Shown piece by piece: positions 34,930 to 61,722 of a stretch of 64,000 bases of DNA. Location: assembly GCA_964532205.1 (NCBI GenBank), contig CAZHGQ010000004.1, positions 3,118 through 67,117 of the forward strand. The letters run 5' to 3'. The notes under the pieces are model-generated. The model saw nothing but the letters and a program-made list of their open reading frames with translations. It was not told the DNA's origin and searched no databases. The position numbers were made by a program, and so were the translations under genes. The number at the start of each line of letters is the position of its first letter. The first letter of the stretch is position 1. Source of the stretch: an uncultured Candidatus Saccharibacteria bacterium (GTDB taxonomy: Bacteria; Patescibacteriota; Minisyncoccia; Phycocordibacterales; JAKAEA01).

Positions 34930-34935
34930 GCGGCT

Positions 34936-37986: not shown

Positions 37987-38032
37987 CGTCCAGCATAGTT
38001 GACTATTTTCTCATCGCCTTTGGTGGTCAATT

Positions 38033-38257
38033 ATGATAGACTATCCGGCGATGACTCACGAGCAATTGCTGAAAGTGGTTTGCCGCCGGATGAAGCGTCT
38101 GGACATGACACCGTACCGTTTGCATCAGGAACTCAACGGTAAGGTTTCAAAGCAGACGGTCTACAACTTCATCGAGCATGGCAGGCACGTCACCACGGAG
38201 ACACTCGTGGCGATTCTTTCGGTGCTCAAGCTTTCGATCAGCGAACCGGACGAATAG
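38033..38257 (+). CDS. XRE-family HTH DNA-binding protein
   Basis: SKQTVYNFIEHGRHVTTETLVAILSVL. Confidence 0.6.
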   Translation: MIDYPAMTHEQLLKVVCRRMKRLDMTPYRLHQELNGKVSKQTVYNFIEHGRHVTTETLVAILSVLKLSISEPDE

Positions 38258-38266
38258 GAGGCGATC

Positions 38267-40738: not shown

Positions 40739-40762
40739 CCAACAGTGGATAGCAACTACTAC

Positions 40763-41092
40763 TCATCTACTGGAGTGCAGTTCCTTCAGACCTGCTCGCG
40801 CATCATCGGCCTCCTTATCCAATCCTTCTGTCTCTGCCAGGGGGATTACCCTCTGAAACATTTCGATCGCTTCGACTAAGCGTCCGAGATCTTTCATCAA
40901 GCATGCGAGGCAATAGAGAATCTGCACCCGATCGTAGGTATCTTCTTCTTGTTCAGCCTTAAGCAAAGCTTCGCGAAGTTGATTTTCTCCATCAGTGGTA
41001 CGGCCACGATCGAGTAGCAGTAGTGCTTTATTGAACATGTCACGTGCATTCATTTTATCTCCCATACATTCTAATGAAGTTGCGAGAAGCAC
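40763..41092 (-). CDS. TPR-like small protein; candidate immunity protein for the upstream Rhs toxin
   Basis: Helical TPR-like repeats. Immediately downstream of the toxin gene, overlapping it by 38 nt. Confidence 0.4.
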   Translation of the reverse strand: MLLATSLECMGDKMNARDMFNKALLLLDRGRTTDGENQLREALLKAEQEEDTYDRVQILYCLACLMKDLGRLVEAIEMFQRVIPLAETEGLDKEADDARAGLKELHSSR

Positions 41093-47000: not shown

Positions 47001-48764
47001 ACCGTTATAGCTGTATGTGAGGCGTTCAAGAATAGCAGAGTCAGAAAGCCGTTTTCGCTCCACGGTGTTTGGCAATCCGGCAGCCGTGTAGTTGATCTTC
47101 GTTTCGTTCCCTGCCGAATCCACGTAGCGATCCAGTTGGCCACGCTGCAGCGACGCGATGCTGCTGCCGAAACCATGGAAATAAAACTTGTTACCCAACG
47201 TGTCTGTTACGCGGTATCCCGTGCCATCGACCACAAGCCGATCTAGGCTGAAATCACGTGCCACATAAGCAGAGCCGGTGTAATCAAACCACTGTGAGGA
47301 TCGACCACCGGCTACGAGAATCATGCTACTCGTCGCTTGAATCAGAGACGGCCACTGTGCCATGCTCCATCCAGCGCCATTGAGTGCATCGATTCCCTGC
47401 CCGCGAGAATTGTTCCACGTTCGTGTGTGACCCGAGACAATTCCGCCTTCCGCCGGGTCGAGGTCGGATGAGGTAAAGAACACCGAACCATCTGCATACC
47501 GAACAACACCGGAAAAGCCGTCGGTCATCGGATCACTGCTATCAGCACCTGTCGCGGTGCCACCTGGACGATCGGCAAGTGGGTCATTGAAGTATGATGG
47601 GGTTGCTCGGACGGCGGTCAGCCGAACTGTATCCATGTATTTACCGGGTGTTCCCGCGTTTCCATCCGGATCAACTTCCACAATAATGCTTTGTTCTGCG
47701 AGCGTAGGCGACGGTCTGACTGCCTCCACATAGAGCGTTGTGCCAAGCGCTTGGAATTGCGCCAGTGTATACGTAGTTCCGGATGTGCCTCCGGCAACAA
47801 AATCCGACACCGTGCGGGTTGCGTCCGAACCGTCTTTTTTCCAAAGGCGCAACCATCCAGCGGCGGGTGTGTCCGACGTCGTCGCACCGGAGCTCGGATC
47901 GGAACTGTCGTATGTAAGCTTGATTATCGCGGAAGACGTCAAACCGCTCGGAAGCGTGAGTTGAAGCGGTACAAATTTCAATCCCGTTGCCGTGTCATCA
48001 TTTGATGCTGACCCGTCACGGTTGTAGCCATCGGCAAAGTCGGGAATTCCATCGAGGTCAATGTCGCCATTATTAACGGTAATGATTTTGCCCGGTCGAC
48101 CAATGGACTCCTCGATATCCGTCTCTGAGCCGTTTCGCTCCGGCGACCCCGCACTGGTGTTGTCCGAGTCAATGGACACATCCATGCGCTTCACCGAATC
48201 TGCATAGTACGAAAAGAACAGCGTGTAGTCGTCATTATTCACTAATCCGTCGCCGGTCATATCACCTTGGGTATACTTGGCCCCAGTTGCACCAAAATTT
48301 CCCGCGAGAATGTTGAAATCAATGCTGTTTGCTTTCAGATCCCGATCAAAATCTCCTGGTTGAAATTCGAAGCGGTAGACATTACTCAGCGAAGGCGAGG
48401 CCGACGAAAGTGTAAGTTGGAAACTTCCTTTGGAGAGAATCGCGCCCATACCCGGAAATGTTACTTTCGCAGTGGCGGCATCCGGAAACGTCACGGTGGG
48501 CGTCGAGTTCGCAGGTGCCGAACCGGTCTCGATATCGATTAGCGAGAAGTTGGAGGCGCTCAAACCGCTGCTCACGGCATCACTAAAACGGTACACCACG
48601 CCTTGTGAGCCCGCTTGTGTGTAATCGAACGATGCTTCCATTAGCCGGACGGGGGCGCTGAGCAGTTGCCGACGTTCCAGTGCATCCATTGCACAGTGCG
48701 CAAGAAGACTATGAACGCTGGCACGATTCCGGCGAGAGCGACGATCCATGATGGCTCCTTCCAA
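41055..48764 (-). CDS. Rhs/YD-repeat polymorphic toxin (2569 aa) with dockerin-like N-region and C-terminal QHH (AHH-like HNH nuclease) domain
   Basis: GDMTGDGLVNNDD. Dozens of YD repeats (YxYDxxGR). Distinct about 120-aa C-terminal tail with RQHHLVPQ. Confidence 0.75.
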   Translation of the reverse strand: MEGAIMDRRSRRNRASVHSLLAHCAMDALERRQLLSAPVRLMEASFDYTQAGSQGVVYRFSDAVSSGLSASNFSLIDIETGSAPANSTPTVTFPDAATAKVTFPGMGAILSKGSFQLTLSSASPSLSNVYRFEFQPGDFDRDLKANSIDFNILAGNFGATGAKYTQGDMTGDGLVNNDDYTLFFSYYADSVKRMDVSIDSDNTSAGSPERNGSETDIEESIGRPGKIITVNNGDIDLDGIPDFADGYNRDGSASNDDTATGLKFVPLQLTLPSGLTSSAIIKLTYDSSDPSSGATTSDTPAAGWLRLWKKDGSDATRTVSDFVAGGTSGTTYTLAQFQALGTTLYVEAVRPSPTLAEQSIIVEVDPDGNAGTPGKYMDTVRLTAVRATPSYFNDPLADRPGGTATGADSSDPMTDGFSGVVRYADGSVFFTSSDLDPAEGGIVSGHTRTWNNSRGQGIDALNGAGWSMAQWPSLIQATSSMILVAGGRSSQWFDYTGSAYVARDFSLDRLVVDGTGYRVTDTLGNKFYFHGFGSSIASLQRGQLDRYVDSAGNETKINYTAAGLPNTVERKRLSDSAILERLTYSYNGINQLTGMLMERRNDLNAGAVEAVRNVEYEYYGGSDTTYGNPGNLKRVTVKQSGNAVERKLYRYDNYGRLILVLEGASYERALGREGMDPASVNQATLQPYANLVLDYYAADDSTVLRRNRVKTQTIQGSGTFSYDYAGPSSSTTGGRSGVNTWDSKTIESLPDSDNADLSNNDKNVVYTNSRGEVLLTSYSSPTATTAATWNTANQFDAKGRLTLTATPTAVASISDSNNHPATLQSATGLVHTFEYDPASATGYLWRTGRKQGTGGSQNLQVELTYSARPSATGGTPTSSAFVVASDTVYRSDASASAVTTSYSYSYSSDRITQRTTTLPDILQAQNGGTQTTSKTEIMAYDSFGRETSFTDGDGKVATNQYFDATGALKQSVVDSGGAPLTTGFEADLLGRNRKITDANTYMGLSTGITRSEYDDSAALKRVTITPPLPSSGNTPPAHVIIDNRATGVLDEIDVVRDSSGDLLSTVTKRTRTEHNIQQQATAVERFADTSGNAYTASTGALTGTTTRYRTEFGYDERGRQTRQAAGRDLYTGGSLSGFNPTITRTVYDGLDRAISTWVGTDDSSWSPGSPGTNMTKVTANEYDGGSVDGGNVGDDTLTKVTQIPGGSNADRVTAMRYDWRDRLVLTHEGVTSDTTVNSPITLCVFDNLDRCVGKGIYDGDGQNINSLNLGTVDSTLSAQRRAYQDTLFDDRGNVYEVRQYSVEQEWSGTAGTKGNYLTTSMWYDNRGNLIKQRNPGGLNQKMVYDGASRETKRYTTDGKDDPAPGASGNYTAAGSVSDDVVLEQVETSYDGNGNPTLIATGQRDHDKTDLGDLTSLNARISLVGNYYDSADRLTNQVNWGNNGDDGDANANGVRDFSRPSTAPGRDTAADGWDRWLQTDYVFDTAGRLQDVVSPRGVVTRTTYDALDRATIVQEGYRSSAPTADDTRKTLYTYNGFDQQTQIETTTYKSNTAYSYITTYNYGVTKNSTILVNHSGLLSSVVYGRPAGAYSGSGHREVMTGYTALGENRQQKEEIYNLSTSATQKQIREQRFNYDTLGRLTLTEWIDAASKPANMLDRGQKIRTRFDALSRGIEFTTLDSGTTVKNQVIRDFDGLGNLVTEWQEHKTSVARTGGTPSQKVQYVYTTDFGNNLTRLAKTVYPDGREVGVVYGYQDYTTSSTLVNFSRVLNDRISRVGFMVDGDPSTAVNNDRLERYEYLGLNRIVERNMPRVLSAGGVAVSFQGTTYIYDLDPASAVTMDWNQVADDAGRVNDQYGGLDRFGRVVIHDVGLEQRAYGYDADGNVLYSWLDSQDNFNGRWRSELYGSGSAPANQVYDQLGRVQSFVRGDGDYPGNFTYWLNTGSDKRGRLTSLNAPSVTTDSDGDPLPISSQNWDNIIDASVLTRDRSGTNTFDPPARLVFQRPVPTGNSPIQSTPVDNIDQRIDVFVQYDGLGRLASKTTVKLDEIFADPGNSQYQYAYDIPNAHTLTFDYDALGRRISETNSTQEVTGYQGTLHLFYDAAGNVIEEKQEQIDGTYRTQPQNQYVWSAGEPGRMVLRDNDDGSRVWVYSGPDGSVWRIREDFTSLAINREMYTYTTEGQVAVGQSTGTSTFDYKVDQYGRSTSSDGYRFRYLWRGGRDDGDGMLWMPNQTEHDSYRGTPQTEDGYAYQSYTAGGFFDGKNVEWTGVQEKDGFAGTQGQWSNPSTLDAWTDFSGKYDAFRPSAEWNADPYHLAKISGWAGTVALTVASGGTSALWYLAAGTAVGGAGGAIYSASTGADYWKSVEVGTNIGALAGSFPGAISRFSTTALRYADEGAQGALMLFSRTPPPALSIIGGQTVASVMGGGSTAASVFSGAAVNWGGVVGVGSTAVYSLSGSTPSGMVRNTSGYRARYGPAAMRQHHLVPQQLLKNSTFSNRLRALGYDPRKFVDQRITEIPYALHKTLHPEWNKQWELFANANPNFGVADIERQVKLLSEMYLVPRASRNFIRMYGR

Positions 48765-49056
48765 AGACCCCGACCGAATTGTCTTTGCTTTGATTAACCC
48801 TTTTGTGCCCCGGCGTGTCGCGACTCCCGTTGCGAACAGCGCGCCGGGTTACTTCTCGAATTCAATAGACCAATATGATCAAGCTACGTCAAGATAATTT
48901 TCAGTTAAGACAACTTCATTGAATTTGCTTCGACAGTGTTTCAGGATCGTATCCCCGCCTTGCGCCACAGAACACATCGTGCGAAAATCAAATCAGAATA
49001 TCGCAGCGTCAATTGTCGCGTGTTTGATTCTCAATCTCACATTGAAAGGAGACTTC

Positions 49057-49374
49057 ATGGCCCGCACTCGAAAGCCAACCAGTTCGTCCGAGCCACTCAT
49101 TTCGCAGACGCCACCAGCGGAAGCTACAAACAAGCCAGTGCATACCATTCGCTATGGCGCGGTCAAAGCTACTGTGTGGCAGAACGACAGCGAGAATGGA
49201 ATTTTTCATACCGTGACTGTAAGTCGAAGCTGGCGAGACGATAAAGACCAATGGCACGACTCGCAGTCGTTCCATTTCAAAGAGCTGCCACAGTTGTCAA
49301 AAGCTGTCAACGACGCCCACTCTTGGATCGCGTGGCAAGAGCGGAGAATGGCAGACGCGGCGAAAACGAAGTAA
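49057..49374 (+). CDS. Hypothetical protein (start moved to Met with AAGGAG RBS)
   Basis: aaaggagacttcATG. Followed by a terminator. Confidence 0.4.
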   Translation: MARTRKPTSSSEPLISQTPPAEATNKPVHTIRYGAVKATVWQNDSENGIFHTVTVSRSWRDDKDQWHDSQSFHFKELPQLSKAVNDAHSWIAWQERRMADAAKTK

Positions 49375-49398
49375 GGCTGCTTGCAGCACACCTCCATT

Positions 49399-49424
49399 AG
49401 CCAGGCATCACCCTGGCTTTTGTT
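49399..49424 (+). terminator. Rho-independent terminator (agccagg...cctggct then T-run)
   Basis: Hairpin plus tttgttt. Confidence 0.65.
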
Positions 49425-49524
49425 TAAATGAAAAACCGCTGGCTGATTGAGAGGGGGAAACTCAACCGGGGACGCCAGCGGCAACAGCAATCTATCCATT
49501 CACCTGCGTTGACACAACAAAAAG

Positions 49525-49917
49525 CTAGAAATCTTCGGGCAAGAGAACGGTGGTCACCGAGCGGTCCGCTTCGGTGATGATCCAGAGCTTCACCCCGCAG
49601 CGATCCGTGTAGACCGACAGCAATCGCATCCCTTCCTTCAGCGCGAGATCATTCTCCCTTCGGTCTGATTCGCAGACCTCTCCCCAATCTCCTCTCACAT
49701 GACGAGCTAGGCAACTTGGGATGTCTTCTGGATGCAACTTGTCCTTCGCACTGGCAGTGATAACGCACTGCCCCACTGGAAACAATGATAGCGGCATGAT
49801 GGACTCCTGAGTTTGGATGGATGTAGAAACGATCTTCCTTGAGCGTATGACAGGAATTGATCGCGCGCAACCGTTGGCTGTGGGTAAGAAGACCGCCTTG
49901 ACCGGGCTCAAACACAA
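49525..49917 (-). CDS. Conserved hypothetical plasmid/element protein (HVRGDWGEV...DRREN...WIITEADRS motifs)
   Basis: ORF with distinctive motifs; function unknown. Confidence 0.4.
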   Translation of the reverse strand: MCLSPVKAVFLPTANGCARSIPVIRSRKIVSTSIQTQESIMPLSLFPVGQCVITASAKDKLHPEDIPSCLARHVRGDWGEVCESDRRENDLALKEGMRLLSVYTDRCGVKLWIITEADRSVTTVLLPEDF

Positions 49918-50258
49918 TCAAAATCAAAAAAACTTTGAATTGCTAAGTTGCCGTCACCACAATCCGCGCGGAATTGAAAGGCGAAATCTGGGCTCATTTC
50001 GCCGTTGTCTCCGCTCCATATCGTGCTATGTTGCTTCCGGCTTTTTCCGTTGCCGGTTCCTGCACAATCGACTCTCCTGAGATCGACAATACGTAGCTCT
50101 TCTTGTCCTAGTTACGATGGAACTGGCGAGGTCATTTGTTCGCGATGCGACAGTAGTGCAAAGACCCAAACCTCAACTGGTGAAGCGGTTTCCTGCAAGT
50201 GCTGTCGTGGATATGGCAGGATCGTGTGCCCGATGCATTCACTGCCAAAACAGGCTCT

Positions 50259-50501
50259 TCAAAGTGACCGCTCGAATGATGCAAGCATGACAGAGGGTTC
50301 CTTGCCGCAGGCTTTGCACCAGGAAATAAACTCAACCGGATCGATGCGACGATCCCCAACCTCGACCTTGTGAACATAGGAGGGAGGCTTGCGGAGCTTT
50401 TCCGCAAGCGCACGCTGGGATTGGCCGCTTTGATTCCGCAGCGCCCGCAGCGTGCGACAAAGTTTTCGGTACGCAGGAGTGTGTTGTGCCCTTGCACCCA
50501 T
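50259..50501 (-). CDS. XRE-family HTH transcriptional regulator
   Basis: LRALRNQSGQSQRALAEKL...SYVHKVEVGDRRIDPVEF. Confidence 0.65.
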   Translation of the reverse strand: MGARAQHTPAYRKLCRTLRALRNQSGQSQRALAEKLRKPPSYVHKVEVGDRRIDPVEFISWCKACGKEPSVMLASFERSL

Positions 50502-50563
50502 TACAGGAGCAAGGTAACGTGAACGTCTGATGCTCCCATTTTGGGAGTAACTGGAGGTGTGGT

Positions 50564-50755
50564 ATGTCCAGCCGTAGTTGTCCCCGCTGTCATGAAAAAG
50601 GAACTGTCACCTGCAGCCGCTGCAAGGGATCTGGGCAAGTGTACAAGGGCTTCTTCCGGGATGGCGAAAGTCGCCAGGAATGCCCGAAGTGCGATGGCAA
50701 GGGAGAAGTCCAGTGCCCTCGCTGTGAGGGTTCGGGCACGGTGGAGAAGGGCTGA
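50564..50755 (+). CDS. Small DnaJ-type zinc-finger protein (four CxxCxGxG repeats)
   Basis: CPRCHEKGTVTCSRCKGSGQV...CPKCDGKGEVQCPRCEGSGTV. Confidence 0.5.
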   Translation: MSSRSCPRCHEKGTVTCSRCKGSGQVYKGFFRDGESRQECPKCDGKGEVQCPRCEGSGTVEKG

Positions 50756-50878
50756 TAGACCGACTCTGTGCTGATGATGCCGCTTAACACAGGGATAGTC
50801 GTCCGGTCGAGAATAGTCCAAGCCGACGAGCAAATACTGGGTCGGCTTGGACTTCATCCTTCCAAGAACAAGAACGGT

Positions 50879-51568
50879 CTAGTCTGCAAATGCTACGGGT
50901 TCTAAGCCTTTGCCAGATTCGGAATTGTCCACATCATAACCCACACGCAAACAACCCTTCTTCCATTTGCAACTGCGGATGGTCACCTCTCCCAAATCTG
51001 CTAAGGTCCCGATATGCGTGCCGCCGCACGGGAGCGGCGGGAAGTTTTGAATTGTGACGATGCGAGGCGGCGGTACTCCGTCTGTCATCGAGACTTGGCC
51101 TCCCGCCTCGATAGCGTCGCGAAGCTCAGCAGCCAATGTCGACTCAAAGCCTGAGGGTGGCGCTATTTCACACTGAAATTCGACACGAGCTTCACCGGGC
51201 CAGTGATGTCCACCCTTCGCTCGCAAGGAAGGCAACAATCGTTCGGCGACTCCGGCAATCAAGTGGCCAGCGGTGTGATAGCGTGAGTTCACTGCGCGAC
51301 GATCTGCATCAATCCGAACCTCTACCTCTTCTCCGACTCGTAGACCGTCGACGCTGTCAACAGTATGCGCAATATTGTCGTCATCAGCATAGTCCGCACG
51401 CAAAATCTTCGCTGGCCCAATCCAGCCAAGATCACTAGGTTGCCCGCCACCTTGTGGAGCGACAATCGTCTGATCAAGAAAGACCACCGGCGATGGCTCA
51501 GCGATAATCCGGACCACGCGGGCGCGGCAAATAGCTGCTGAACTTGTGAAATAGGTTTTATTAGTCAT
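50879..51568 (-). CDS. AlaX-like alanyl-tRNA-synthetase editing-domain protein (tRNA_SAD)
   Basis: HTAGHLI and CGGTH zinc-binding motifs. Confidence 0.65.
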   Translation of the reverse strand: MTNKTYFTSSAAICRARVVRIIAEPSPVVFLDQTIVAPQGGGQPSDLGWIGPAKILRADYADDDNIAHTVDSVDGLRVGEEVEVRIDADRRAVNSRYHTAGHLIAGVAERLLPSLRAKGGHHWPGEARVEFQCEIAPPSGFESTLAAELRDAIEAGGQVSMTDGVPPPRIVTIQNFPPLPCGGTHIGTLADLGEVTIRSCKWKKGCLRVGYDVDNSESGKGLEPVAFAD

Positions 51569-51634
51569 TGTGGGTTCCTTATCTTGATAATCAATTCCTG
51601 TATATACGAGCTGACGAATTTTGAGAGATCATTC

Positions 51635-52498
51635 TTATGAGTGATGAAATAGCGGCAGATCTTGGGAAACAAAATCAACGAAACCGCTAATTGATAATCG
51701 CTCCCCTGCTCCAGCACAGGCGGTCACAGCATGGATACGCCTTGCTGATGCGATCACAAGTGCGCCTATTGGAGGATCAAACTCGACATCCGGCGGACCG
51801 ATTCTCGAACGATCAAGCCCGTAGGTCTTGTTCCCCTTATCATCGTAGAACCGAAGAGTGTCGTACTCCGAGCGATTCGTGATGACACGATTCCAGAATT
51901 GGAGTCTTCCACCACTCTCTGTTTTCTTCACATAAACATTGACGAAGAGCTGTTCCTGAATGGAACGGGTTTCGTCACATGGGAAGTCAAGGTCGGCACG
52001 GTCATCGTGGGGATATGCTTCTCCACCGTCCCGAAACACTCGGCACACGCCGGTAAAACATGGCTTTCCGGAGATTCGAAGTTCACGCACACCATGCGGC
52101 CAGGCGTAGCCGACCTCGCGCAGCACCCTATGAATTGGAAATTCATAGGGTGCAAAATGCCGACACAACGCTTTGGACATCTGGTGAACTGAGTCAAAAT
52201 ACTTCGGGCATAATTCTTGCCCAAGACATCCGAAAAGCGAGTTGCCAATCGTGCCGATGCGCTCGGCACCCGTACCCGGCTCATAGGTGGTCCAATGTGC
52301 AAAGGTGAGCAAGCGATCAGCGACGACTTGGCAAGCCGCTTCTGAGAAGAAGCCGGGAATGACCACAGCAAAGTCATCCCGTCGAATCAGCCGACGAAGG
52401 TCTTCCTCTCGGATTTCATCAATCACGCGAACGCCTGGCGGCAGCGTGTCTGCGAAATCGTCGAGAGAATCTTGCCTCGCAGACAATAAATGAGACAT
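51635..52498 (-). CDS. 2OG-Fe(II)-oxygenase-like protein (start moved to Met with strong AGGAGG RBS)
   Basis: YPHDDRAD (HxD) ... RIHAV pattern. RBS aaggaggct 5 nt upstream of ATG at 52498. Confidence 0.35.
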   Translation of the reverse strand: MSHLLSARQDSLDDFADTLPPGVRVIDEIREEDLRRLIRRDDFAVVIPGFFSEAACQVVADRLLTFAHWTTYEPGTGAERIGTIGNSLFGCLGQELCPKYFDSVHQMSKALCRHFAPYEFPIHRVLREVGYAWPHGVRELRISGKPCFTGVCRVFRDGGEAYPHDDRADLDFPCDETRSIQEQLFVNVYVKKTESGGRLQFWNRVITNRSEYDTLRFYDDKGNKTYGLDRSRIGPPDVEFDPPIGALVIASARRIHAVTACAGAGERLSISGFVDFVSQDLPLFHHS

Positions 52499-52825
52499 GT
52501 AAGCCTCCTTTCGAAAGGAGGCCCAGCGGGCAGCGGTAGGCATTCGGCCAATTGCAAAACACTTGCAATTACAATGAATATGGCTCATAATGCACACATT
52601 GGACAGAGGTTAGGACTGACTCGCGAAAGTTTAGGTCCCGATCCCTGAATTGCCCGTCTGGGCCCAATGCCACTAGAGTAATCTGGTGGCTTTTTTTATC
52701 TTAACGCGCATCACAAATCTCGTCCAGAAAAATATCGTTATAGAGAATACTTCATACTTGACGACTAATTGCAGTCGATGGACCTTTCGTTGATTTTAGA
52801 TGCGGCTTTGGCCGATGATTAAAGT

Positions 52826-53320
52826 ATGACCGAAGATCTTGGAAAGAGCCTCTATCGACTGACGGTCAATCTCCGATTGGTTCGTCCACCGAAACCGGAC
52901 AAAGAGAAGCTCTCGGAGCGGGAGATCATGGCGCTTTTCCTCATTAGGTTCTTGGGCACCTGTCCTGTCGAACAACTACGCAGAAGACTCGATGTCCCGA
53001 TGAACACTGCAAGCACCTACATCCGACGATTAGCGGACAAGGAGTTTATTGGGCGATCTTTCGATTCCAAAGACGCCCGAATTCATCTGCTGCAGTTAAC
53101 GAAGCGAGGCGAATCGTTCCTAGAAAAACTTGAGGAAATGCGCGGGCACCGCATGGATACCTACATCGGAGAGCTCGCATTGACGGGCGCTGAAGAGACT
53201 TCCCTTCGTCGAGTGTTGAAGAAGGCAAATGATCTGATTGAGAATCAACTGCGAACCCGCATCAGACGCACGGCTTCTGAAGAGTCGAACGTCCCTCCAG
53301 CCACACTTGACGAAGAGTAG
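52826..53320 (+). CDS. MarR-family transcriptional regulator
   Basis: Winged-helix region TASTYIRRLADKEFIGRSFDSKDARIHLLQLTKRGE. Confidence 0.65.
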   Translation: MTEDLGKSLYRLTVNLRLVRPPKPDKEKLSEREIMALFLIRFLGTCPVEQLRRRLDVPMNTASTYIRRLADKEFIGRSFDSKDARIHLLQLTKRGESFLEKLEEMRGHRMDTYIGELALTGAEETSLRRVLKKANDLIENQLRTRIRRTASEESNVPPATLDEE

Positions 53321-53397
53321 CCCGCCGGAGGAGAGCGATCGACATGCTGACGATTGAAGGTTGCTTGGAACGATTTGAATTGCGCCGGCAGCATTCA

Positions 53398-54690
53398 CTA
53401 TTGAATCCAGCGTCGCAGCTTTTCCTCGACGCAGTTCCTTCGGCTGCCGTACCGCTGGTGGGAACGCTGAACAAGCAGTCTGCTGCGTCCGCACGGCAGT
53501 TTGAGCGCGGCAAGCGTTCTCCCGCGAAATGGCTCTTGCTGCTCGCCATCGCGCATCAGTTTCGCGAGCACTCGAAAGTTCCCCAAGGACGAGAACTCTA
53601 CCGGGGCAAATGATCCGCCAAACTCACGGGAAATAGTTTGCGCATCACTCTCTCCCACTCGGAAACTCAGCATCGAGCCGACGTTACCAAACACGGCTTT
53701 GCGGATAAACTCCGGCACCTGATCCAGGTACTGATGACTCAAGGTCAAGCTGAGTCGGTACTTTCGAGCTTCGGAAAGAATCGATGAAAAACTCGTCGTT
53801 GAAAAGTTCTGAAATTCATCTATCGCCAGAAAAAAGTCCTGCCGCTTTTCTTCTGACACATTCACCCGACTCATCGCTGCGATCTCAAAGCTGGTCACGA
53901 GGATTGAACCAAGGAGATTCGCTTTATCTTCACCCAGCGCGCCTTTGCTGAGGTTCGCGATAAAGATGCGCTTGTGATCCATCATAAAACGAGGATCAAT
54001 CTTTCGTTTCACCTGTCCCAGGACGTGTCGCAGGGGTGGGGCCATGAGTAATTGACCAACCTTGTTTTGAATTGGCGCGATCGCTTCCTTCTGAAACCGC
54101 TTGTCATACCCCTCAAATTCCCGCGTCCAAAATGATCGGACGATGGGATCATTCACCTGCTTCACGACCCAACGGCGATAGTGTGGATCAACCAGCATTC
54201 GCTGGATGCCCAGGATTGATACATTCTCGCATTCGAGTAAAGCGGAGATCGCGGCAGACAAAATGTACTCAGTTCGTGGTCCCCAGGAATCCGACCAGAT
54301 CGCCTTCATGCTGCCAATCAATCCAGAAACGACACGGTGCCGCTGATTGACAGGCACAGACTGAAGCAAATTGAATCCAATTGGATATGAAAGATCGGCA
54401 GGATTGAAATAGACGACATCTTCGGTGCGGTTACGTGGAATATGATCCAGTACATCGCGAGCGAGATCGCCGTGAGGATCAACTAACCCGACGCCGCGGC
54501 CATAATAGATGTCCTGCAGAATCAGGTTTCGCAGCAGTGTGCTCTTGCCCGTGCCCGTTTTTCCCACAATGTACGTATGTTGGCGGCGATCTTCGGGAAG
54601 CACACCAAAAGGCAGCGTCCCATTCCAGACATCTCGATTGCCGATCCAGTTGATCGATTCATCATGAATGTCATTGTGCTCCTCGCTCAT
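53398..54690 (-). CDS. HerA/FtsK-superfamily ATPase (DUF87-like, 430 aa), paralog of the ATPase core of 34936..37986
   Basis: GKTGTGKSTLL, IDEFQNF, SEARKYRLSLTLSHQ. Confidence 0.65.
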   Translation of the reverse strand: MSEEHNDIHDESINWIGNRDVWNGTLPFGVLPEDRRQHTYIVGKTGTGKSTLLRNLILQDIYYGRGVGLVDPHGDLARDVLDHIPRNRTEDVVYFNPADLSYPIGFNLLQSVPVNQRHRVVSGLIGSMKAIWSDSWGPRTEYILSAAISALLECENVSILGIQRMLVDPHYRRWVVKQVNDPIVRSFWTREFEGYDKRFQKEAIAPIQNKVGQLLMAPPLRHVLGQVKRKIDPRFMMDHKRIFIANLSKGALGEDKANLLGSILVTSFEIAAMSRVNVSEEKRQDFFLAIDEFQNFSTTSFSSILSEARKYRLSLTLSHQYLDQVPEFIRKAVFGNVGSMLSFRVGESDAQTISREFGGSFAPVEFSSLGNFRVLAKLMRDGEQQEPFRGRTLAALKLPCGRSRLLVQRSHQRYGSRRNCVEEKLRRWIQ

Positions 54691-54909
54691 ATGCCCGAAT
54701 CAGCCGCCGTTCCTTCGGAAAGACCCTTGGAGTAATCCGGCGCCATTGGGAAACCCACACGCAACGACATCCGTTGTGGTTGACGAGCCGCTAAGGTAGC
54801 GGAGGCTGAAACGGAAACACCAACAGCCTGCCCGCTTGTGTAGTCGTCTGTTGAGCTCCTTCTCAAAAGTATATCTCAACGAACGAAACATTAACTGTGG
54901 AGAAGCTCT

Positions 54910-57378
54910 TCACTTTGACGCAGCTTTGCCACCCCCATCTGCAACAATTAGGGGATTGAGAGGGTTGTTCTTCATCGCATCCACTCGCATCTTCCATTTT
55001 TCCCACTCAACCCCCGACATTCGCACCTGACCAGCCGTTCGGAGACTTTCCAACTCGGCGAGATATGAGTTAACCGCCTTTACAAAGATTTCTCCGTCAG
55101 CACCGACGGGCGCAACCTCGCGCTCCAGCCTTCTCAGGAGCTTTTGGATTGCTGAGATTGAGACGTTGTCCTTATTCAGCCGATTGAAGTCGTTTATAAC
55201 ACGCTTAACTGTCTGAGTAGATGAGTACTTAAGCGTCACGGCGCGACTTCTCTCCAAAGCTTCGCGAATAAAATCACAAATTGCGATGACGTTCGCCCTA
55301 AGGGCTTCGTAAGCCTCTATCTCCTGATCGTCAAATCGCCCAGCTGAGAGATGAGATACAACCTCTTGAAGAACCCCCATCTTGTCGTACTCCCCGCCAA
55401 ATTCCGGCTTCACACCGCGGAACAGTGCTTTCGTCGATTCTACAAGGCCACCAGTTCCATATTCTGGAGACGCGACATGGTTTCGGCAGGTAGCCGCGTT
55501 TTTCTCCCAAGTCTCAGGCAACCATTTTTCAATGTAGTGCAACACCGCTTGCGCATACACGCACTTCGGGATGATGTCCTCTGTGGTGACGATCTGAACG
55601 TTGTCAGAAAAAGAAGTGACCAGAGTTCCAATTTGTCCGACAAACTGCACATCGATCAACTTCCGTTTCTTCTTCGGGTTATTGCCAGTGATGGTAGATG
55701 CAACATCGTTCGCAGGCGGATCAGAGTCTATAACAACAGCTGTCGGCGGTATCGGCTCGTCGGCCCATCGTGATTGCTCCAAGACATTCTCTACGTTTCC
55801 AACGCCATCGGCAGAAACGAACACCACGCTGTTAAGATCCAAAAACTGCCCGACGTTCTCCGGCGTGGCAAACACTCGGATCAGTTCAGTCAAAATGTAC
55901 TGGTCTGTGGCTCCCTCTAGTAAGATGTTGTCAGCACCAAGAAATAAACTGGGAGCACTATCGATACCCAGCGCGGTTCTTACAGGTTCATACCGTCTAG
56001 CCCGTGCCTGCTCGATGTATTGTGTACCTTCTTCCGATTCCTCTTTCTTGACAACCCGGATTCGCCGTGGAAAGTTTCTGTTGATTAGGTATGGCGAATG
56101 GGTCGTATAGATGAGTTGGCAGGTTTGATGCGACGATTCTGGGCTTACAAGTGATTCAAATACTGCCAGAAGGTTTCGTTGCCCCAGAATCGAAAGTGCT
56201 GAATCCGGTTCGTCCATTAAGATAATTGAGTTCCGGTTTTTGTGCGAGAGCTCCATTGCTTTTGCTTGAATGTAATAGCTAAGAAAGTAGCGGAGCCCGG
56301 AACTTCGTTCGCGAAAGGTGTAGATAGAGTCAGTCTTATCTCTGATTTCGAAATAGACCACCCCATCCTTGCAATTCATGGACAGTGAAAACTGCTCATC
56401 CTGCTTCCAAAAATGCGAAAGATTGAGCTTGTCATTCAACTCATCGTTCCACTTCGCAATCTGTCCTTCCACATACCCGCGATCGTTTTGATCGCGTTCA
56501 TAGATGTAGCGTAGTGTCTCTGGAGTTATTTCAAGAATCTCTCGGAACAATTGCATCTCAAGCCCATCCGGAGAGACGTGCTGTCCGGGGATGGCATCAA
56601 TCGACTTCTTGGCGTTTGAAAGTGAGGTGAGAAACTCTTGACCAACTGCGTTTTGTGGCGGAGGTGGCGTGAGCCGCCGAATAACGCCAGCAGCTTCCTC
56701 CATCTTTTTCCTATCCAGCAATCCGACACTTTCAAAGGCTTTGTCGCCGCTAGCAACAAGAAGAGACGCCAGCGGAATTTCGCTGGCAAGCTGGGCCTGC
56801 GAGTGGATATATCTGACTGTAGGAAGGAGCGCTCGCACCCTACTAAGTTGCGATTCATCCAAGAGGACTGCTTGCTCGGATGGTTCGATGTAAATCCTCG
56901 CGGGCTTCTTCGGCTCTTCGTCGGGTGCCAATATCAAAACGAAATGTTTAGACTCTGGACTTCCACTCGGAGAAACAGCCCCGCCGATCGCACTACTTAG
57001 CGCCGTTGACTCTTCCGCATTCTCAATCTCAAAACGCAAGCCGATGTTCGGCCAAGCTTCAACATTTCGGGTCCGGATTCCCGCAAAATGGCAGAGATCG
57101 GTCCGCTTGAACACGTCTCCAGATTCGATTCCCTTCCCTGTTGCGACCTTACTTATCGCATTGAGTAGGTGCGACTTGCCGCTCTCGTTGGCTCCTACGA
57201 TTGTTGTGATGTCGCTTTCTACCGGAATTTCGATGAATGGGAAGATATCTTGTGCAGCAAAAGATGGCGACATTTTGTTCCACGGTCGGTACTCACGCGT
57301 CTCACCCTTTTCGAATGTCCCGCGGTAATTGAGATGAAATGACTTGTACCAACGCAACAGCACTGCTCGAAGTTTCAT
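54910..57378 (-). CDS. OLD-family ABC-ATPase fused to TOPRIM nuclease plus about 250-aa C-terminal extension (Gabija GajA/PARIS/OLD-like)
   Basis: N-terminal ABC ATPase (GANESGKSHLL; signature SSGLRY; Walker B IILMDEPDSALS; TTHSP H-loop). TOPRIM LLEGATDQYIL...VSADGVGNV. Confidence 0.6.
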   Translation of the reverse strand: MKLRAVLLRWYKSFHLNYRGTFEKGETREYRPWNKMSPSFAAQDIFPFIEIPVESDITTIVGANESGKSHLLNAISKVATGKGIESGDVFKRTDLCHFAGIRTRNVEAWPNIGLRFEIENAEESTALSSAIGGAVSPSGSPESKHFVLILAPDEEPKKPARIYIEPSEQAVLLDESQLSRVRALLPTVRYIHSQAQLASEIPLASLLVASGDKAFESVGLLDRKKMEEAAGVIRRLTPPPPQNAVGQEFLTSLSNAKKSIDAIPGQHVSPDGLEMQLFREILEITPETLRYIYERDQNDRGYVEGQIAKWNDELNDKLNLSHFWKQDEQFSLSMNCKDGVVYFEIRDKTDSIYTFRERSSGLRYFLSYYIQAKAMELSHKNRNSIILMDEPDSALSILGQRNLLAVFESLVSPESSHQTCQLIYTTHSPYLINRNFPRRIRVVKKEESEEGTQYIEQARARRYEPVRTALGIDSAPSLFLGADNILLEGATDQYILTELIRVFATPENVGQFLDLNSVVFVSADGVGNVENVLEQSRWADEPIPPTAVVIDSDPPANDVASTITGNNPKKKRKLIDVQFVGQIGTLVTSFSDNVQIVTTEDIIPKCVYAQAVLHYIEKWLPETWEKNAATCRNHVASPEYGTGGLVESTKALFRGVKPEFGGEYDKMGVLQEVVSHLSAGRFDDQEIEAYEALRANVIAICDFIREALERSRAVTLKYSSTQTVKRVINDFNRLNKDNVSISAIQKLLRRLEREVAPVGADGEIFVKAVNSYLAELESLRTAGQVRMSGVEWEKWKMRVDAMKNNPLNPLIVADGGGKAASK

Positions 57379-57612
57379 AACTGTCCTTCAATGAAAAATA
57401 TCGTCGATCGAATTCAATTGCGAGGAGGCGTAGCCCAACGAATATGTTAGCATTGCGTGCAGACGTACACAATTCATCTGCGATCATAGGTTCGTCATGA
57501 GTAATCCCCACCTCCCAATTGACAACCGCAGCCACGTCATGCTTCGCTAGAAACAGTCTCGTTCTTTCCCATTTAGCGCACGCTTCAACCTGCGTCCCAT
57601 GTCGGGTCGCTC

Positions 57613-58029
57613 TTGCTGCGCGCAGAAAGGGTGGCCATGCCACGCAAACAAAAGGTACGACGCTTTGATCCAGGGTTTCATTGTGTTTCGCAGCTAAGTT
57701 TGGAAGAAGAAGCGCGGTTTCTACACCGCGAGGTCGAGAATAGTTTAATCGCCTCTCCCGCCGAACTCGACAAGCTGCGGATTGAGCGACACACCCATTG
57801 CGAACAATCCTGGCAACACCTTTGTTGTCTTCTCGCTCACGTAGCGGAGAAGGATCGCCGAGTATTGCAGGCACTTCTCTTCCGCGACCTATGGTTTGTG
57901 GTCGAATTGTATCGCACCTACCTCAAAGCCAACGCAGAGGACGCGCCACCCATCCGTCAGCACGCGAAGCCTTCAACGGCCCTTGAATTCAGCGATTTTC
58001 TCTTTGACCTTCAACCCCGAAAGGAGTGA
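57613..58029 (+). CDS. Hypothetical protein, translationally coupled to the primase
   Basis: Stop codon at 58027-58029 with primase ATG at 58032. Preferred over the Arg-rich antisense ORF 57302..57874. Confidence 0.35.
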   Translation: MLRAERVAMPRKQKVRRFDPGFHCVSQLSLEEEARFLHREVENSLIASPAELDKLRIERHTHCEQSWQHLCCLLAHVAEKDRRVLQALLFRDLWFVVELYRTYLKANAEDAPPIRQHAKPSTALEFSDFLFDLQPRKE

Positions 58030-58031
58030 CC

Positions 58032-59138
58032 ATGAGTTGGATAGACTTTCGTAAATTGCGTGAGTCCGTGTCATTTAAGCAAGTGCTCGCCCACTACAAG
58101 ATCGAGCTACGAATCACAGGTGACAAAGCCACCGGGTATTGTCCTTTGCCCACACACAAGGGCGAGCGGCGGTCGCCGTCATTTTCTGTAGAGCTTTCGA
58201 AGCGAATATTTCAATGCTTTGGCTGCGGAGCTAAAGGCAACCTGATCGACTTCGTCTGCTACATGGAGGGTAAGAACCCTCGGAACGGTGCTGACGTGCA
58301 TCAGATCGCGATGCTTATCCACCAGACGTTTTTGGAAACCCCAGCTACTCCCCCAGTGAAAGCACCACCGCCTACCAAACCGTCTGTGCCCAAGCCGGTG
58401 TCAACTGCAACAAAGGCGTTGCCCGATCCCACCATCCCTGTTGTGATCAACGCTCCGCTCGATTTCGAGCTAAAGGAGCTTGATCCCGATCATCCGTATC
58501 TGCTTGGCCGCGGCTTCACCGCAGAGACTATCAACCATTTCGGCTTAGGTTTCTGCAACCGTGGCACCTTCAAGGGGCGCGTCGTGATCCCGCTCCATGA
58601 TCTGAAAGGACGTTTCCTTGGGTATTGCGGGAGAATCACCAGCGACAAGCTGATCTCTCCCACGTGTCCAAAGTACAAGTTCCCGCCGCCGCGAGAGCAT
58701 GAAAGAGCGATTCATGAACTTCGCAAATCGCACTTCTTGTATAATGGACATCGCATCAAATCACCGGTGCAGGACTTGATTGTCGTCGAGGGATTTCCAT
58801 CCGTGTGGTGGTTGTGGCAACATGGGCACACCAACACAGTATCGGTGATGGGTGCAGCCTGCTCTAGCGAGCAAGCGCAACTCATCATCAAACACGTCGC
58901 AGCTGATGGGCATGTCTGGGTATTTACCGACGATGACGAAGCGGGCTTACGCTGCGGCGAAAGCCTGCTGAGTCTCATCGCGCCTGAACGGTTCGTCAGA
59001 TGGTTACAACCCATCCATGGCACGCAGCCAACAGATTGCAACGCAGAACACCTCGCCGAACTTCTGCCGCTTGGAACATCGACAGATGCACCCAAAGCGA
59101 GTTCTCGCACGAGAAAACCACTTCCACGCACTGCGTGA
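58032..59138 (+). CDS. DnaG-like DNA primase (CHC2 zinc finger plus TOPRIM), plasmid/phage type
   Basis: CPLPTHKGERRSPSFSV...FQCFGCGAKGNLIDFV and LIVVEGFPSV TOPRIM. AAGGAG RBS before ATG at 58032. Confidence 0.7.
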   Translation: MSWIDFRKLRESVSFKQVLAHYKIELRITGDKATGYCPLPTHKGERRSPSFSVELSKRIFQCFGCGAKGNLIDFVCYMEGKNPRNGADVHQIAMLIHQTFLETPATPPVKAPPPTKPSVPKPVSTATKALPDPTIPVVINAPLDFELKELDPDHPYLLGRGFTAETINHFGLGFCNRGTFKGRVVIPLHDLKGRFLGYCGRITSDKLISPTCPKYKFPPPREHERAIHELRKSHFLYNGHRIKSPVQDLIVVEGFPSVWWLWQHGHTNTVSVMGAACSSEQAQLIIKHVAADGHVWVFTDDDEAGLRCGESLLSLIAPERFVRWLQPIHGTQPTDCNAEHLAELLPLGTSTDAPKASSRTRKPLPRTA

Positions 59139-59185
59139 GTCATCAATACAGAACGACCAGCACTGGTCGTTCTTTTCATCTGAGG

Positions 59186-59449
59186 TCATTCCTTCATTCG
59201 CCTAATCGTCTTTGACAACACCGCAACGAGTTTGTTTGGGTTTGCTCCGCGGGCTAGCACCAACGCAATCATCATGATCTTCGAGAAAAACATAGCGGCA
59301 GCAATTCCTCCGATCGCCGCATACGCCGCCGCCAGCACACAAAAAACGACGACCACTCCAACCGTAACCCATCGTTCCGCCTGACTTACAACTGTCATCT
59401 TTCCCCCTTGTGAGAAACAGCAACTGGCTGTCGCACCGTGCGACATCAC
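59186..59449 (-). CDS. Small membrane protein (hypothetical)
   Basis: Two hydrophobic helices. Confidence 0.3.
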   Translation of the reverse strand: MMSHGATASCCFSQGGKMTVVSQAERWVTVGVVVVFCVLAAAYAAIGGIAAAMFFSKIMMIALVLARGANPNKLVAVLSKTIRRMKE

Positions 59450-59560
59450 ACCCCACTATCCCTATATAGCCAGATAGACGCGCATTAAGTTCCCCGAGCA
59501 ACTTTCCTAGGAAAAATGAGATTTCCAATCCATGCAGAGCAGTAATCAACTAAACGGGTT

Positions 59561-59828
59561 CTCCACCCCGTGTGGTTGAGCGGCGTGCGGGTGCGTGAGC
59601 CGGGTGACCCGCGTGAGCCCCGTGAGGGGCCGTGAGGCGGGTAGTCGGGGGTGGCAAATTCAACACAACGAACGAATGAGCGCTCAACAGAGCGCTGGTT
59701 TGAAGGTAGTGGGCCTCCACCCCCTTGGAGGGGTGTGAGGAACCCGTGGAGCGGCGTTGTCCTTTACCAATTGTTCGATTCCTACCGAGGGCAGAGTAAG
59801 CATCGAGTCGCGCGCAGTGACTAACCCC
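59561..59828 (-). repeat. 268-bp perfect inverted repeat, right copy
   Basis: Reverse complement identical to 28147..28414. Confidence 0.85.
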
Positions 59829-59920
59829 TTCTGGGAAATGCGCGAAGTTTCGCGCGTTTCCAGTGCCGCTTCAGGCGGCAACCCGCAACGCGAACGCCAT
59901 TTCCGGGCCTCCGTTGCAAC
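59826..59920 (-). repeat. Inverted about 95-bp duplicate of the rec2 3' end/att arm (matches 61434..61528 with 1 mismatch), abutting the inverted repeat
   Basis: Reverse complement of 59826..59920 aligns to 61434..61528. ORF 59684..59938 is the resulting remnant (ATEARKWRSRCGLPPEAALETRETSRISQKG). Confidence 0.75.
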
Positions 59921-60007
59921 AACAACGACACGAGTCACTGCCTTGGCGCATTTTTCTTAACGTGCTACTATGCGCGCGCAAATCATTAGCAGTTAATTCG
60001 CATTCAC

Positions 60008-61657
60008 ATGGAAACAATTCACAGCAGCGGCAGGTATTTCCTGTACGCGCGCAAATCCACCGATACGGAGGAAAAGCAGGTTCGAAGCATCGACGATCAA
60101 CTCGCCGAACTTCACGACTTCGCAAAGTCGCACAACCTCAACATCTTGGAGACGTTTATTGAACGGCGCACCGCGAAGATTCCGGGTCGCCCGGTATTCA
60201 ACGAAATGCTCGATCGCATCCAGCGCGGCGAAGCAGATGGCATCCTTGCTTGGCATCCTGATCGCCTCTCCCGCAACAGCATTGATGGCGGCAGGCTTAT
60301 CTACCTTGTCGACCAAGGTGTCATCCGTGATCTCAAGTTTCCCATCTACACATTTGACTCAACCTCGCAAGGCAAGTTCACACTTGCCATCGCTTTCGGA
60401 CAAAGCAAATACTACGTGGACAACCTTTCGGAAAACGTCAAACGCGCGATGCGGCAGAAGGCAAAAAGCGGTCAGTTTCCTGGCCGAGCACCAGTCGGCT
60501 ACCTAAACGATCCGCGTACACGAACGGTGGTGCTTGATCCTGCACGAAGCCACCTGGTGCGGAAAGTCTTCGAGCTTTTTGCAACCGGTCAGTGGTCGAT
60601 CCGCGAGCTACGCGCCACCAGCACCAAGCTCGGATTACTCAGCAGTTCTGAAAGGCCACTCTCACTCTCTGAAATGCACCGCTTCCTGCGCAACCCCTTC
60701 TACTACGGTCTGTTTCGCTATGCCGGTGAACTCTATGAAGGACGCCATGAACCACTCATTGCGAAATCCGTCTTTGATCGTGCCCAACTGGCACTGTCCC
60801 AGCGAACCAAACCCCGCTGGAAGCCTTCATCCGAGAAACTGTTTCAAGGCGTATTTCGGTGTGCCGCGTGTGGCGCGTTCATCACGACTGAAACACAGAA
60901 GGGACGTAACTACCTTCGGTGCACTCGCAAAAAAGGTGCCTGCTCACAGCCGTACCTGCGGGAGGATGATGCGGTCCGACAGATGCAGGTCATTCTTTCT
61001 GAGATCGCCGTGCCCCAGGAAACGGTCGATACACTTCGCGCTGAATTTACCGAGCGTAAAAAACAAGAAGCAACTCATCGCGCCGACAATCTCTTCGATC
61101 TTCATCAGCAATCTGCGGAGATAGACAGCAAACTTGAACGCCTCACAATCAGCTATCTCGACAACATCGTCACCCTCGACGAATACCGTTCAACCAAAGC
61201 GGCCATTCTGCTTGAGAAGACCAAAATCAAAGATGAAACCCGCCTGGTGGAACAACACTCGAACGGTTGGCTCGAACCGATGGAGGCCTTCATTGCAGAG
61301 CTTAACCAAGCCATTTCTGTGGTTTCTGGCTCAGATCTGCGAGAAAAACGCGATTTTCTCACAAGGGTCGGCTCGAACTTAATAATCCAGGATCGCACGA
61401 TCCACTACGATTTCCAGCCACTCTGGAAATACGTTGCAACGGAAGCCCGGAAATGGCGTTCGCGTTGCGGGTTGCCGCCTGAAGCGGCACTGGAAACGCG
61501 CGAAACTTCGCGCATTTCCCAGAAGGGGTGCCCAATGGGAATCGAACCCATATCGCCGGGACCACAATCCAGCGTTCTAACCGTTGAACTATGGGCACCA
61601 TATTTGCCCAGGTTTTTAGTAAACCCACCTAAGCATTGTGCGCAGGAGAGGATTTGA
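60008..61657 (+). CDS. Large serine recombinase rec2 (ortholog-type of rec1); functional C-terminus probably ends near 61528 at the tRNA-His junction, and the ORF reads through the tRNA antisense to the first stop
   Basis: FLYARKSTDTEEKQVRSIDDQ. Recombinase domain. CAACGAFITTETQKGRNYLRCTRKKGAC zinc ribbon. Confidence 0.8.
   Translation: METIHSSGRYFLYARKSTDTEEKQVRSIDDQLAELHDFAKSHNLNILETFIERRTAKIPGRPVFNEMLDRIQRGEADGILAWHPDRLSRNSIDGGRLIYLVDQGVIRDLKFPIYTFDSTSQGKFTLAIAFGQSKYYVDNLSENVKRAMRQKAKSGQFPGRAPVGYLNDPRTRTVVLDPARSHLVRKVFELFATGQWSIRELRATSTKLGLLSSSERPLSLSEMHRFLRNPFYYGLFRYAGELYEGRHEPLIAKSVFDRAQLALSQRTKPRWKPSSEKLFQGVFRCAACGAFITTETQKGRNYLRCTRKKGACSQPYLREDDAVRQMQVILSEIAVPQETVDTLRAEFTERKKQEATHRADNLFDLHQQSAEIDSKLERLTISYLDNIVTLDEYRSTKAAILLEKTKIKDETRLVEQHSNGWLEPMEAFIAELNQAISVVSGSDLREKRDFLTRVGSNLIIQDRTIHYDFQPLWKYVATEARKWRSRCGLPPEAALETRETSRISQKGCPMGIEPISPGPQSSVLTVELWAPYLPRFLVNPPKHCAQERI
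61526..61599 (-). tRNA. tRNA-His (GTG) with genomically encoded G-1
   Basis: Hand fold: 8-bp acceptor including G-1:C73, D stem GTTC/GAAC, anticodon loop TTGTGGT, T arm ATGGG-TTCGATT-CCCAT. Confidence 0.7.
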
Positions 61658-61722
61658 ACCTCCAAGCCCTTGCGGGCGCTACCACCTCAAGGTAGTGCGT
61701 CTGCCAATTTCGCCACCTGCGC
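61639..61722 (-). tRNA. tRNA-Leu (GAG), long variable arm
   Basis: Hand fold: acceptor GCGCAGG/CCTGCGC, anticodon loop TTGAGGT, variable arm CGCCCGCAAGGGCTTGG, T arm AGGTTCAAATCCT. Confidence 0.7.

Follow-up and report, generated by a model that had tools for sequence, protein, structure and literature searches.

Why should a mobile element keep, directly upstream of its own integrase gene, an inverted copy of the site through which it integrates? The question is raised by a 64,000-nt stretch of DNA from an uncultured Candidatus Saccharibacteria bacterium (contig CAZHGQ010000004.1 of assembly GCA_964532205.1, positions 3,118 to 67,117; hereafter the window), in which two large serine recombinase genes, rec1 and rec2, and a tRNA-His gene meet at three junctions that share a short core. 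A preliminary description of the window had explained these junctions by tandem or nested integration of two related elements followed by an inversion, or by a serine-recombinase inversion system. As shown below, 28147-61528 is a 33.4-kb integrative element (element 2), whose large serine recombinase, rec2, used the extreme 3' end of tRNA-His, and it sits between this tRNA gene and an older phage-like element (element 1), whose own recombinase, rec1, had used the same site. Element 2 contains a complete second attP region, and the resulting layout – inverted arms A and A' around the cargo, inverted arms B' and B around rec, and then the tRNA gene – is a hallmark of the whole recombinase clade.

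Two serine integrase elements at one tRNA-His 3' end

Two pairs of inverted repeats define the architecture of element 2 (Table 1). Arms A and A' are 268 nt long and 100% complementary, while B' and B are 97 nt long and 99% complementary, their lone mismatch (61444 A vs 59909) being synonymous in rec2 (GAA/GAG), and at the inner edge of each arm identity ends abruptly. Both pairs overlap in a 5-nt core, GGGGT, which is the reverse complement of the ACCCC 3' end of tRNA-His(GTG) since this gene, complete according to ARAGORN, lies on the minus strand. The core is found in the contexts ...CGTT-GGGGT-TAGTCACTG at junction 1 (28.15 kb), ...CAGAA-GGGGT-TAGTCACTG at junction 2 (59.83 kb, reverse strand) and ...CAGAA-GGGGT-GCCCAATGG at junction 3 (61.53 kb). 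The sharing of a core at the tRNA-His 3' end that had been noticed before is real, the core being GGGGT and not only GGGG, and so is the inverted duplication of the rec2 3' arm with a single mismatch, which extends over 97 nt. Repeats of 268 and 97 nt are beyond chance; a 5-nt core alone could be due to chance, which is unlikely because the three-junction layout with tRNA-3'-end cores recurs in 42 other loci.

GC content rises from 0.428 in 1-28146 to 0.528 in 28147-61528, stepping up precisely at the first core, and is 0.465 to the right of element 2. Junction 1 is hybrid in nature, the former attR of element 1 now serving as attL of element 2, and it is no attP because the 3' end of rec1 (GC 0.42) meets the element 2 arm exactly at the GC jump. 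Junction 2 is the complete second attP region (B-core-A, ~360 bp), inverted and directly upstream of rec2, and junction 3 is the attR of element 2. Of the sites that had been called attP-like at 28.15 and 59.83 kb, only the latter is an intact one, whereas the attR-like hybrid proposed at 61.53 kb is indeed made up of the rec2 end, the core and the tRNA. Both recombinase frames had also been thought to terminate at or next to the core. This is true of rec1, whose TAG stop (28152-28154), next to the core, comes from the element 2 arm, but not of rec2, whose frame (ATG at 60008) crosses the core and runs on for ~43 codons antisense through tRNA-His, codon 507 onward being an antisense tRNA-His reading, into tRNA-Leu, where it stops at 61655-61657.

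Rec1 and Rec2 are 31% identical, and both match PF00239, PF07508 and PF13408 (resolvase, recombinase and zinc ribbon domains). The YxRKST motif, with the nucleophilic serine (S17), and four cysteines are invariant in the alignment of the Rec2 family, and the predicted model of one relative (P0097, AlphaFold2) has long helices (338-441) between ribbon strands. Relatives of Rec1 (35-44% identical) occur in viral contigs, some of them adjoining tRNA-His, tRNA-Trp or tRNA-Gly. That rec1 might share the inverted-attP architecture was considered and rejected, no inverted copy of its 3' end being found in the window.

As in an island at a tRNA site, the tRNA-His gene next to element 2 is complete, rec2 adjoins it and the GC content is foreign. 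The right flank, which encodes ribosomal protein L19, an RluA-type pseudouridine synthase and tRNAs, is host DNA with a Parcubacteria/Paceibacterota-like character. Contigs of close relatives that were reached via the neighbouring RluA gene end short of the tRNA-His site; exact look-ups of the Rec1, Rec2 and P0001 proteins reached no contig, and the Rec2 cluster has a single member. Promoter and terminator scans scored no consensus promoter upstream of rec2 and returned nothing besides a hairpin resembling a terminator within arm A (28289-28306).

Table 1. Positions of the repeats, recombinase genes and flanking features in the window
Feature	Position	Strand	Remarks
Element 1, phage-like, older	1-28146	.	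PHROG matches upstream of rec1: tail-fibre, methyltransferase, ATPase
rec1, large serine recombinase of element 1	26562..28154	+	Pfam Resolvase, Recombinase and Zn_ribbon
Core copy 1 (GGGGT)	28147..28151	+	Junction 1; GC step at same place
Arm A, distal copy, P'-type arm of element 2 attP	28147..28414	+	CTCGAT at 28168-28173, 16 nt beyond core
Element 2 cargo, 31.1 kb, GC ~0.53	28415..59560	.	Bracketed by A and A'
Arm A', proximal inverted copy of arm A	59561..59828	-	100% identical
Core copy 2 (ACCCC on + strand)	59824..59828	-	Centre of intact inverted attP copy, junction 2
Arm B', inverted copy of last 97 nt of rec2 up to and including core	59824..59920	-	Repeat match
rec2 upstream unique region	59921..60007	+	With gene body, forms the 1.5-kb cassette between B' and B
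rec2 ORF (open reading frame) as it stands, 549 aa, large serine recombinase	60008..61657	+	Database protein P0001 100% identical
Arm B, rec2 3' end, P-type left arm of attP and attR	61433..61529	+	Repeat match
tRNA-His(GTG)	61525..61598	-	3' end 61525-61529 is core copy 3, junction 3; T-arm hexamer ATCGAA 61541-61546
tRNA-Leu(GAG), host flank	61638..61722	-	rec2 ORF terminates within

A conserved inverted attP and an integrase gene that spans it

An alignment of Rec2 relatives was scanned against one genome per species and the Joint Genome Institute (JGI) metagenomes, which yielded 160 loci with 170 recombinase copies. Their hosts are mostly Patescibacteria, but also Planctomycetes, Omnitrophota, Ignavibacteriota, Nitrospirota and others. 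An inverted repeat pairs the rec 3' end with an upstream copy in 143 of the 170 copies (median 106 nt, 99.2% identity), and some 17 of the 27 that have no B'/B repeats are cut by contig ends. The second pair, A/A', starts where B'/B ends and brackets the cargo in 40 of the 79 loci with at least 2.5 kb upstream (cargo of 0.6-31 kb; median A arm of 199 nt, 99.5% identity). Arm lengths range from 32 to 434 nt across relatives, and repeat lengths are specific to subfamilies. In most chained loci the two pairs overlap by 3-13 nt (25 nt in one outlier, L037), and the overlap always complements a tRNA 3' end (e.g. TGGCGG for Ser and TGGCTG for Gln), the convergent tRNA gene coming next. The inverted attP upstream of the recombinase is therefore a conserved design and no accident, in a clade whose members are only ~45% identical. 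It follows from its conservation in 143 of 170 relatives that the accidental inversion of the preliminary description is unneeded; the other part of that scenario, two serine-recombinase elements inserted successively at the tRNA-His 3' end, stands.

The layout is present in assemblies from SPAdes, MEGAHIT and others, including a 1.8-Mb contig (L018) and a closed 579-kb genome (L039, CP174360.1). Viral contigs gave 19 distant relatives only, none with the rec-flanking repeat layout; L164 is alone among them in having an inverted match at all, a single one of 62 nt that lies 2.8 kb upstream of rec. A search for circular contigs found terminal overlap in L020 only, the repeats of which are fragmentary. 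In L141, a 2071-nt terminal inverted duplication (1-2071 and 9496-11566) includes the recombinase gene, a palindrome that is probably an assembly-graph mis-traversal at the B repeat, and the decayed B arms of L142, L144 and L109 (12-29 differences) may mark inactive copies.

Cargo is wholly different between close relatives. The smallest elements hold unrelated cargo only (e.g. multicopper oxidase, methyltransferase, PG-binding protein) and no transfer or replication genes. In the small elements inspected, the cargo always has the same orientation with respect to rec, every main ORF is on the minus strand and, wherever an Xre-type gene is present, it lies next to A'. In the Ignavibacteriota contig L018, the A-arm-bracketed segment (6491-9829) holds crcB and an enolase gene, i.e. 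either housekeeping-type cargo or a chromosomal segment captured by inversion. L033, L037 and L064 are tandem arrays of two or three family members, which form chained segments bounded by inverted repeats, and in L037 the upstream recombinase gains a native-like tail from its neighbour's A arm.

The rec cassette itself occurs in both orientations, pointing toward the tRNA in 107 cases and away from it in six (L016, L038, L046, L058, L132 and L154), in which the tRNA lies upstream and adjoins B'. The flipped cassette of L038 is 94.6% identical to the normal one of L024. The earlier suggestion of a serine-recombinase inversion system is borne out to this extent, although no switch of the Hin/Gin type is involved. 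B arms show ~13 differences between related elements but ~3, mostly 0, within one element, and A arms behave alike; because a crossover at the core cannot homogenise the arms, this requires frequent recombination or gene conversion between them. In the flipped state of L154 (1562-3400), the arm beyond the core carries a T-arm-like motif at attB-type spacing.

The arms next to the core allow a test of the att assignment. Of the LI integrase sites, attB has its zinc-ribbon motif nearer to the centre than attP, by 5 bp (PMC3783163). Here, counted from the divergence point of the arms, the tRNA arm has its T-arm hexamer TTCGAA at 11 nt, and arm A has T(T/C)CGAA at 16 nt, i.e. 5 bp further out, in 22 of 36 loci including the window, where the two motifs are ATCGAA (11 nt) and CTCGAT (16 nt). 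Since this 5-bp offset fits the LI rule, arm A is a half-site of the P type, with a sequence mimicking the tRNA, and the B-type half-site is the tRNA arm. No mirror-image or other clear motif was found in the left arms. The attB flank opposite the tRNA shows no conservation across loci, which fits insertion beside a recombinase gene of foreign origin, the situation of the window and of the three arrays.

In this clade, the attP core lies inside the coding frame of the integrase, which is conserved both before and beyond it; in the window the ORF crosses the core as well, but the homology of its tail is weak. Each of the 23 fully chained loci has an ORF that runs across the core. When read through B-core-A, the form expected in an excised circle, it ends 15-22 codons past the core in W(R/L)C.L..(I/V)RTFF.ENP, a peptide in which the Leu and Pro codons vary synonymously and for which AlphaFold predicts a terminal helix (residues 500-513, pLDDT, the predicted local distance difference test score, ~87) after a disordered linker. 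The DNA motif is absent from some homologues in which the peptide pattern (LL..hR[ED]FF.DNP) persists. Most integrated copies have the frame running into the tRNA instead, where it closes with arbitrary antisense-tRNA residues (...WRRRWDSNPR...). Of the 120 top-ranking homologues in the database, ~18 have the native tail end and roughly two thirds a tRNA-derived one. Because the frame crosses the core and the peptide lies in arm A, integration should swap a conserved peptide for antisense-tRNA sequence; of the 54 loci where rec points to the tRNA and its present ORF has an antisense-tRNA end, at least 48 have a spare inverted copy that still codes for the native tail in the frame of arm B. In the window, the attP configuration would give rec2 47 codons past the core in arm A, with a stop (28289-28291) at the terminator-like hairpin, and the alignment of this A-tail form with P0003, its nearest relative and one that is itself in the B-core-A state, extends over the tail; the similarity is modest.

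A possible inversion toggle and the alternatives to it

What could an inverted spare attP be for? The reading we favour, with a probability of about 0.5, is an inversion toggle that re-arms a self-truncating integrase. In the excised circle, rec would be flanked by two identical attP sites in inverted orientation, and integration via the site at the rec 3' end would remove the native tail and put antisense-tRNA sequence in its place, the truncated integrated form being the common, presumably quiescent state that accumulates in genomes. The spare inverted copy would then be a store of the intact rec 3' end. If the 1.5-kb rec cassette inverted between B' and B, through RecA-type recombination or through action of the recombinase on its own attR, the gene would regain its native tail with no excision, and the active integrase would tend to flip its own cassette back to the truncated state. 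Such self-flipping would explain the 107:6 bias, which two equivalent sites otherwise would not, and inter-arm recombination would also keep the arms identical.

Whether these elements form a distinct class, in which directionality is controlled by DNA topology and not by a separate factor, is a bolder claim, which we put forward tentatively as a possible one. It would combine a self-disabling integrase, a flipping cassette and recombination between attR and the internal attP: the enzyme would pair its own attR with the internal attP, turn off after integration and be re-armed by rare inter-arm recombination. The attR would be usable as a partner for the internal attP because, on this account, only the tRNA half of attB is recognised.

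Several points weigh against the toggle. The inversion, excision and circular form of element 2 are predictions from sequence, an exact search of metagenome contigs for the B-core junction gave 0 matches, and the inactivity of truncated Rec2 is presumed. The arms are far longer than a toggle needs, and something other than self-flipping could underlie the 107:6 bias. The tail motif shares one part, ATCCGAAC, with the presumed DNA-binding motif, and some of the peptide conservation is therefore imposed at the DNA level, while the tail of Rec2 in the window matches the family motif weakly. Finally, L154, which also targets tRNA-His, has the same repeats and an ORF that stops 2 codons after the core in either state, which means that tail swapping is not the sole reason for the architecture.

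This last locus equally favours the most serious rival, in which the second attP has no regulatory role and only allows the circle to integrate either way round, or is a selfish duplication, ordinary gene conversion keeping the arms identical and flipping being neutral. It would also account for copies that are identical over far more than a recombinase site and for concerted evolution, which is compatible with plain gene conversion. However, equivalent sites predict orientations of ~1:1, not the ratio seen, the conserved peptide stays in frame in the spare copy of at least 48 of 54 loci, and the design persists across so divergent a clade (members only ~45% identical), so that we consider a neutral copy unlikely. 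Arms that are much longer than the integrase site and evolve in concert could alternatively act in single-stranded DNA after conjugation or uptake, where pairing of A with A' and of B with B' would rebuild a duplex attP, by analogy with CTX-phi, or splint the ends, by analogy with the internal complementary region of DIRS1, mismatch repair in the stem homogenising the arms. The sequence of the circle junction recurs, exactly reverse-complemented, as the internal segment, and the window cargo encodes type IV coupling protein (T4CP)-like ATPases, a Replic_Relax protein and a primase. Nevertheless, the smallest elements have no transfer genes, serine recombinases cut two duplex partners and the rec gene would be in the single-stranded loop, all of which makes a single-stranded role decidedly improbable.

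The three explanations that are left fare worse. Cargo that lies between perfect inverted repeats sharing the recombinase core might be a phase-variable switch like Hin, Gin or a shufflon, the recombinase inverting the 31-kb segment and changing its expression, which is very unlikely considering that cargo orientation is constant in the small elements inspected, that cargo content is unrelated between close relatives and that neither a promoter nor a gene fusion is found at the segment boundaries. A one-off inversion after tandem or nested integration would build on a tandem integration that is real, but the same arrangement in 143 of 170 relatives, from many phyla and with subfamily-specific repeat lengths, leaves it hardly credible. 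As for an artefact of assembling mixed circular and integrated forms, the window does come from a metagenome-type contig, many contigs of relatives break at the repeats and L141 is palindromic. The chance of this is nonetheless close to negligible: junctions 59560/59561 and 59920/59921 belong to neither the circular nor the integrated form, and the layout recurs across assemblers, in the 1.8-Mb contig of L018 and in the closed genome of L039. Amplification of the 2-micron type by a cargo-encoded replication protein was rejected, the minimal cargo genes being mutually unrelated.

Comparison with known systems, and the cargo of the window

Rec2 resembles the large serine integrases of phiC31, Bxb1, A118/LI and SPbeta in its Resolvase, Recombinase and zinc-ribbon domains, in its short att sites with a small core, in the position of its gene beside attP and in a distal motif that is offset by 5 bp between attP- and attB-type half-sites. 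It differs from them in that (i) element 2 targets the last bases of a tRNA gene, (ii) the rec2 ORF spans attP, (iii) a second, inverted copy of attP is kept internally and (iv) no directionality factor is evident for element 2, the presence of one not being readable from sequence. The use of t(m)RNA genes by serine integrases was called unreported in 2020 and was seen in only 14 of 297 such elements (PMC7192596). Tandem islands at tRNA genes are alike in their successive insertion at one tRNA end, the newest being next to the tRNA (as in the window, L033, L037 and L064), but they usually have tyrosine integrases and long direct repeats, whereas the shared core here is mostly 3-13 nt.

Each feature of the architecture has its closest analogy elsewhere. 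The SSV1-type integrases of archaeal fuselloviruses are tyrosine recombinases with attP inside their gene, which integration splits near the middle. The clade of rec2 shares with them an attP within the integrase gene and its splitting on integration, but not the tyrosine enzyme or the mid-gene split, and SSV1-type elements have no inverted spare copy for repair in situ. In the integration-dependent immunity of mycobacteriophages BPs and Brujita, attP lies in the 3' part of the repressor gene and the integrase belongs to the tyrosine recombinases; on integration the repressor receives a different C-terminus and with it a different activity, a swap that has its counterpart here in the C-terminus of an integrase, although in these phages the gene concerned is a repressor and there are no inverted repeats. 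Hin, Gin, Cin and PinQ, like rec2, are serine recombinases associated with a segment between inverted sites that is found in both orientations. These are small invertases with ~26-bp sites, an enhancer and a gene outside the segment, whereas Rec2 is a large (500-aa) enzyme of the integrase type, its gene is inside the cassette, the window arms are 97 and 268 nt long and the element also integrates. Lastly, the yeast 2-micron plasmid is a replicon on which the tyrosine recombinase FLP promotes inversion for copy amplification. It and its relatives resemble the predicted circle of element 2 in having two long identical inverted repeats that hold the recombination sites and split the circle into two unique regions, one with the recombinase gene; they differ in being FLP replicons, the smallest elements here having no replication genes.

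None of these analogies combines the three features that are new with respect to the described systems found, i.e. a serine-integrase clade dedicated to tRNA 3' ends, an ORF that spans attP and a conserved inverted internal attP, and full-text literature searches found no description of the layout with an inverted spare attP. With these loci, an entire serine-integrase clade that is devoted to the 3' ends of tRNA genes is documented. If the favoured reading is true, this would be a widespread mobile-element architecture, undescribed as far as full-text searches show, in hosts that are chiefly ultra-small Patescibacteria, together with several other phyla, and in which gene flow is poorly understood. 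Control of directionality without a factor, by truncation on integration and an invertible spare end, would, if true, also be of interest for genome-engineering tools. On a practical note, the inverted-repeat layout explains why contigs frequently break at such loci.

The cargo of element 2 comprises a Pycsar pair, an OLD/GajA-like ATPase, T4CP-like ATPases, a third serine recombinase, a Replic_Relax gene, a giant RHS ORF, a MarR regulator and a primase. Directly inside the left arm, the Pycsar pair (28589-30205) consists of a TIR effector that binds cyclic nucleoside monophosphates (PycTIR), followed by a PycC cyclase. Between 34936 and 40738, an ORF resembling a type IV secretion system coupling protein (1016 aa) is followed by the third serine recombinase (38267-39850), which has no zinc-ribbon match, and by the Replic_Relax gene, which suggests that the cargo includes a module for conjugation or mobilisation, or another element nested in it. 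The RHS repeats are in a 2569-aa ORF on the minus strand (41055-48764). Further on (53398-57378), a HerA/TrwB-like ATPase adjoins the OLD/AriA/GajA-like ATPase (AAA_15/21), a possible defence pair, and paralogy with the T4CP-like gene accounts for a weak inverted repeat (36205-36284/54449-54528).

Element 1 has repeats of its own. Three paralogous tail-fibre-like ORFs of 817-942 aa (52-7976) contain many direct repeats with a period of ~2.6 kb, and five tandem repeats of 36-39 nt (11293-11481) lie within the ORF at 10551-11780. The motif AGGGCAAWWTAGGGCAAAATAGGG occurs twice, 10.7 kb apart (15593-15633 and 26278-26308), its second copy being inside an HTH_36 ORF (25608-26555) just upstream of rec1.

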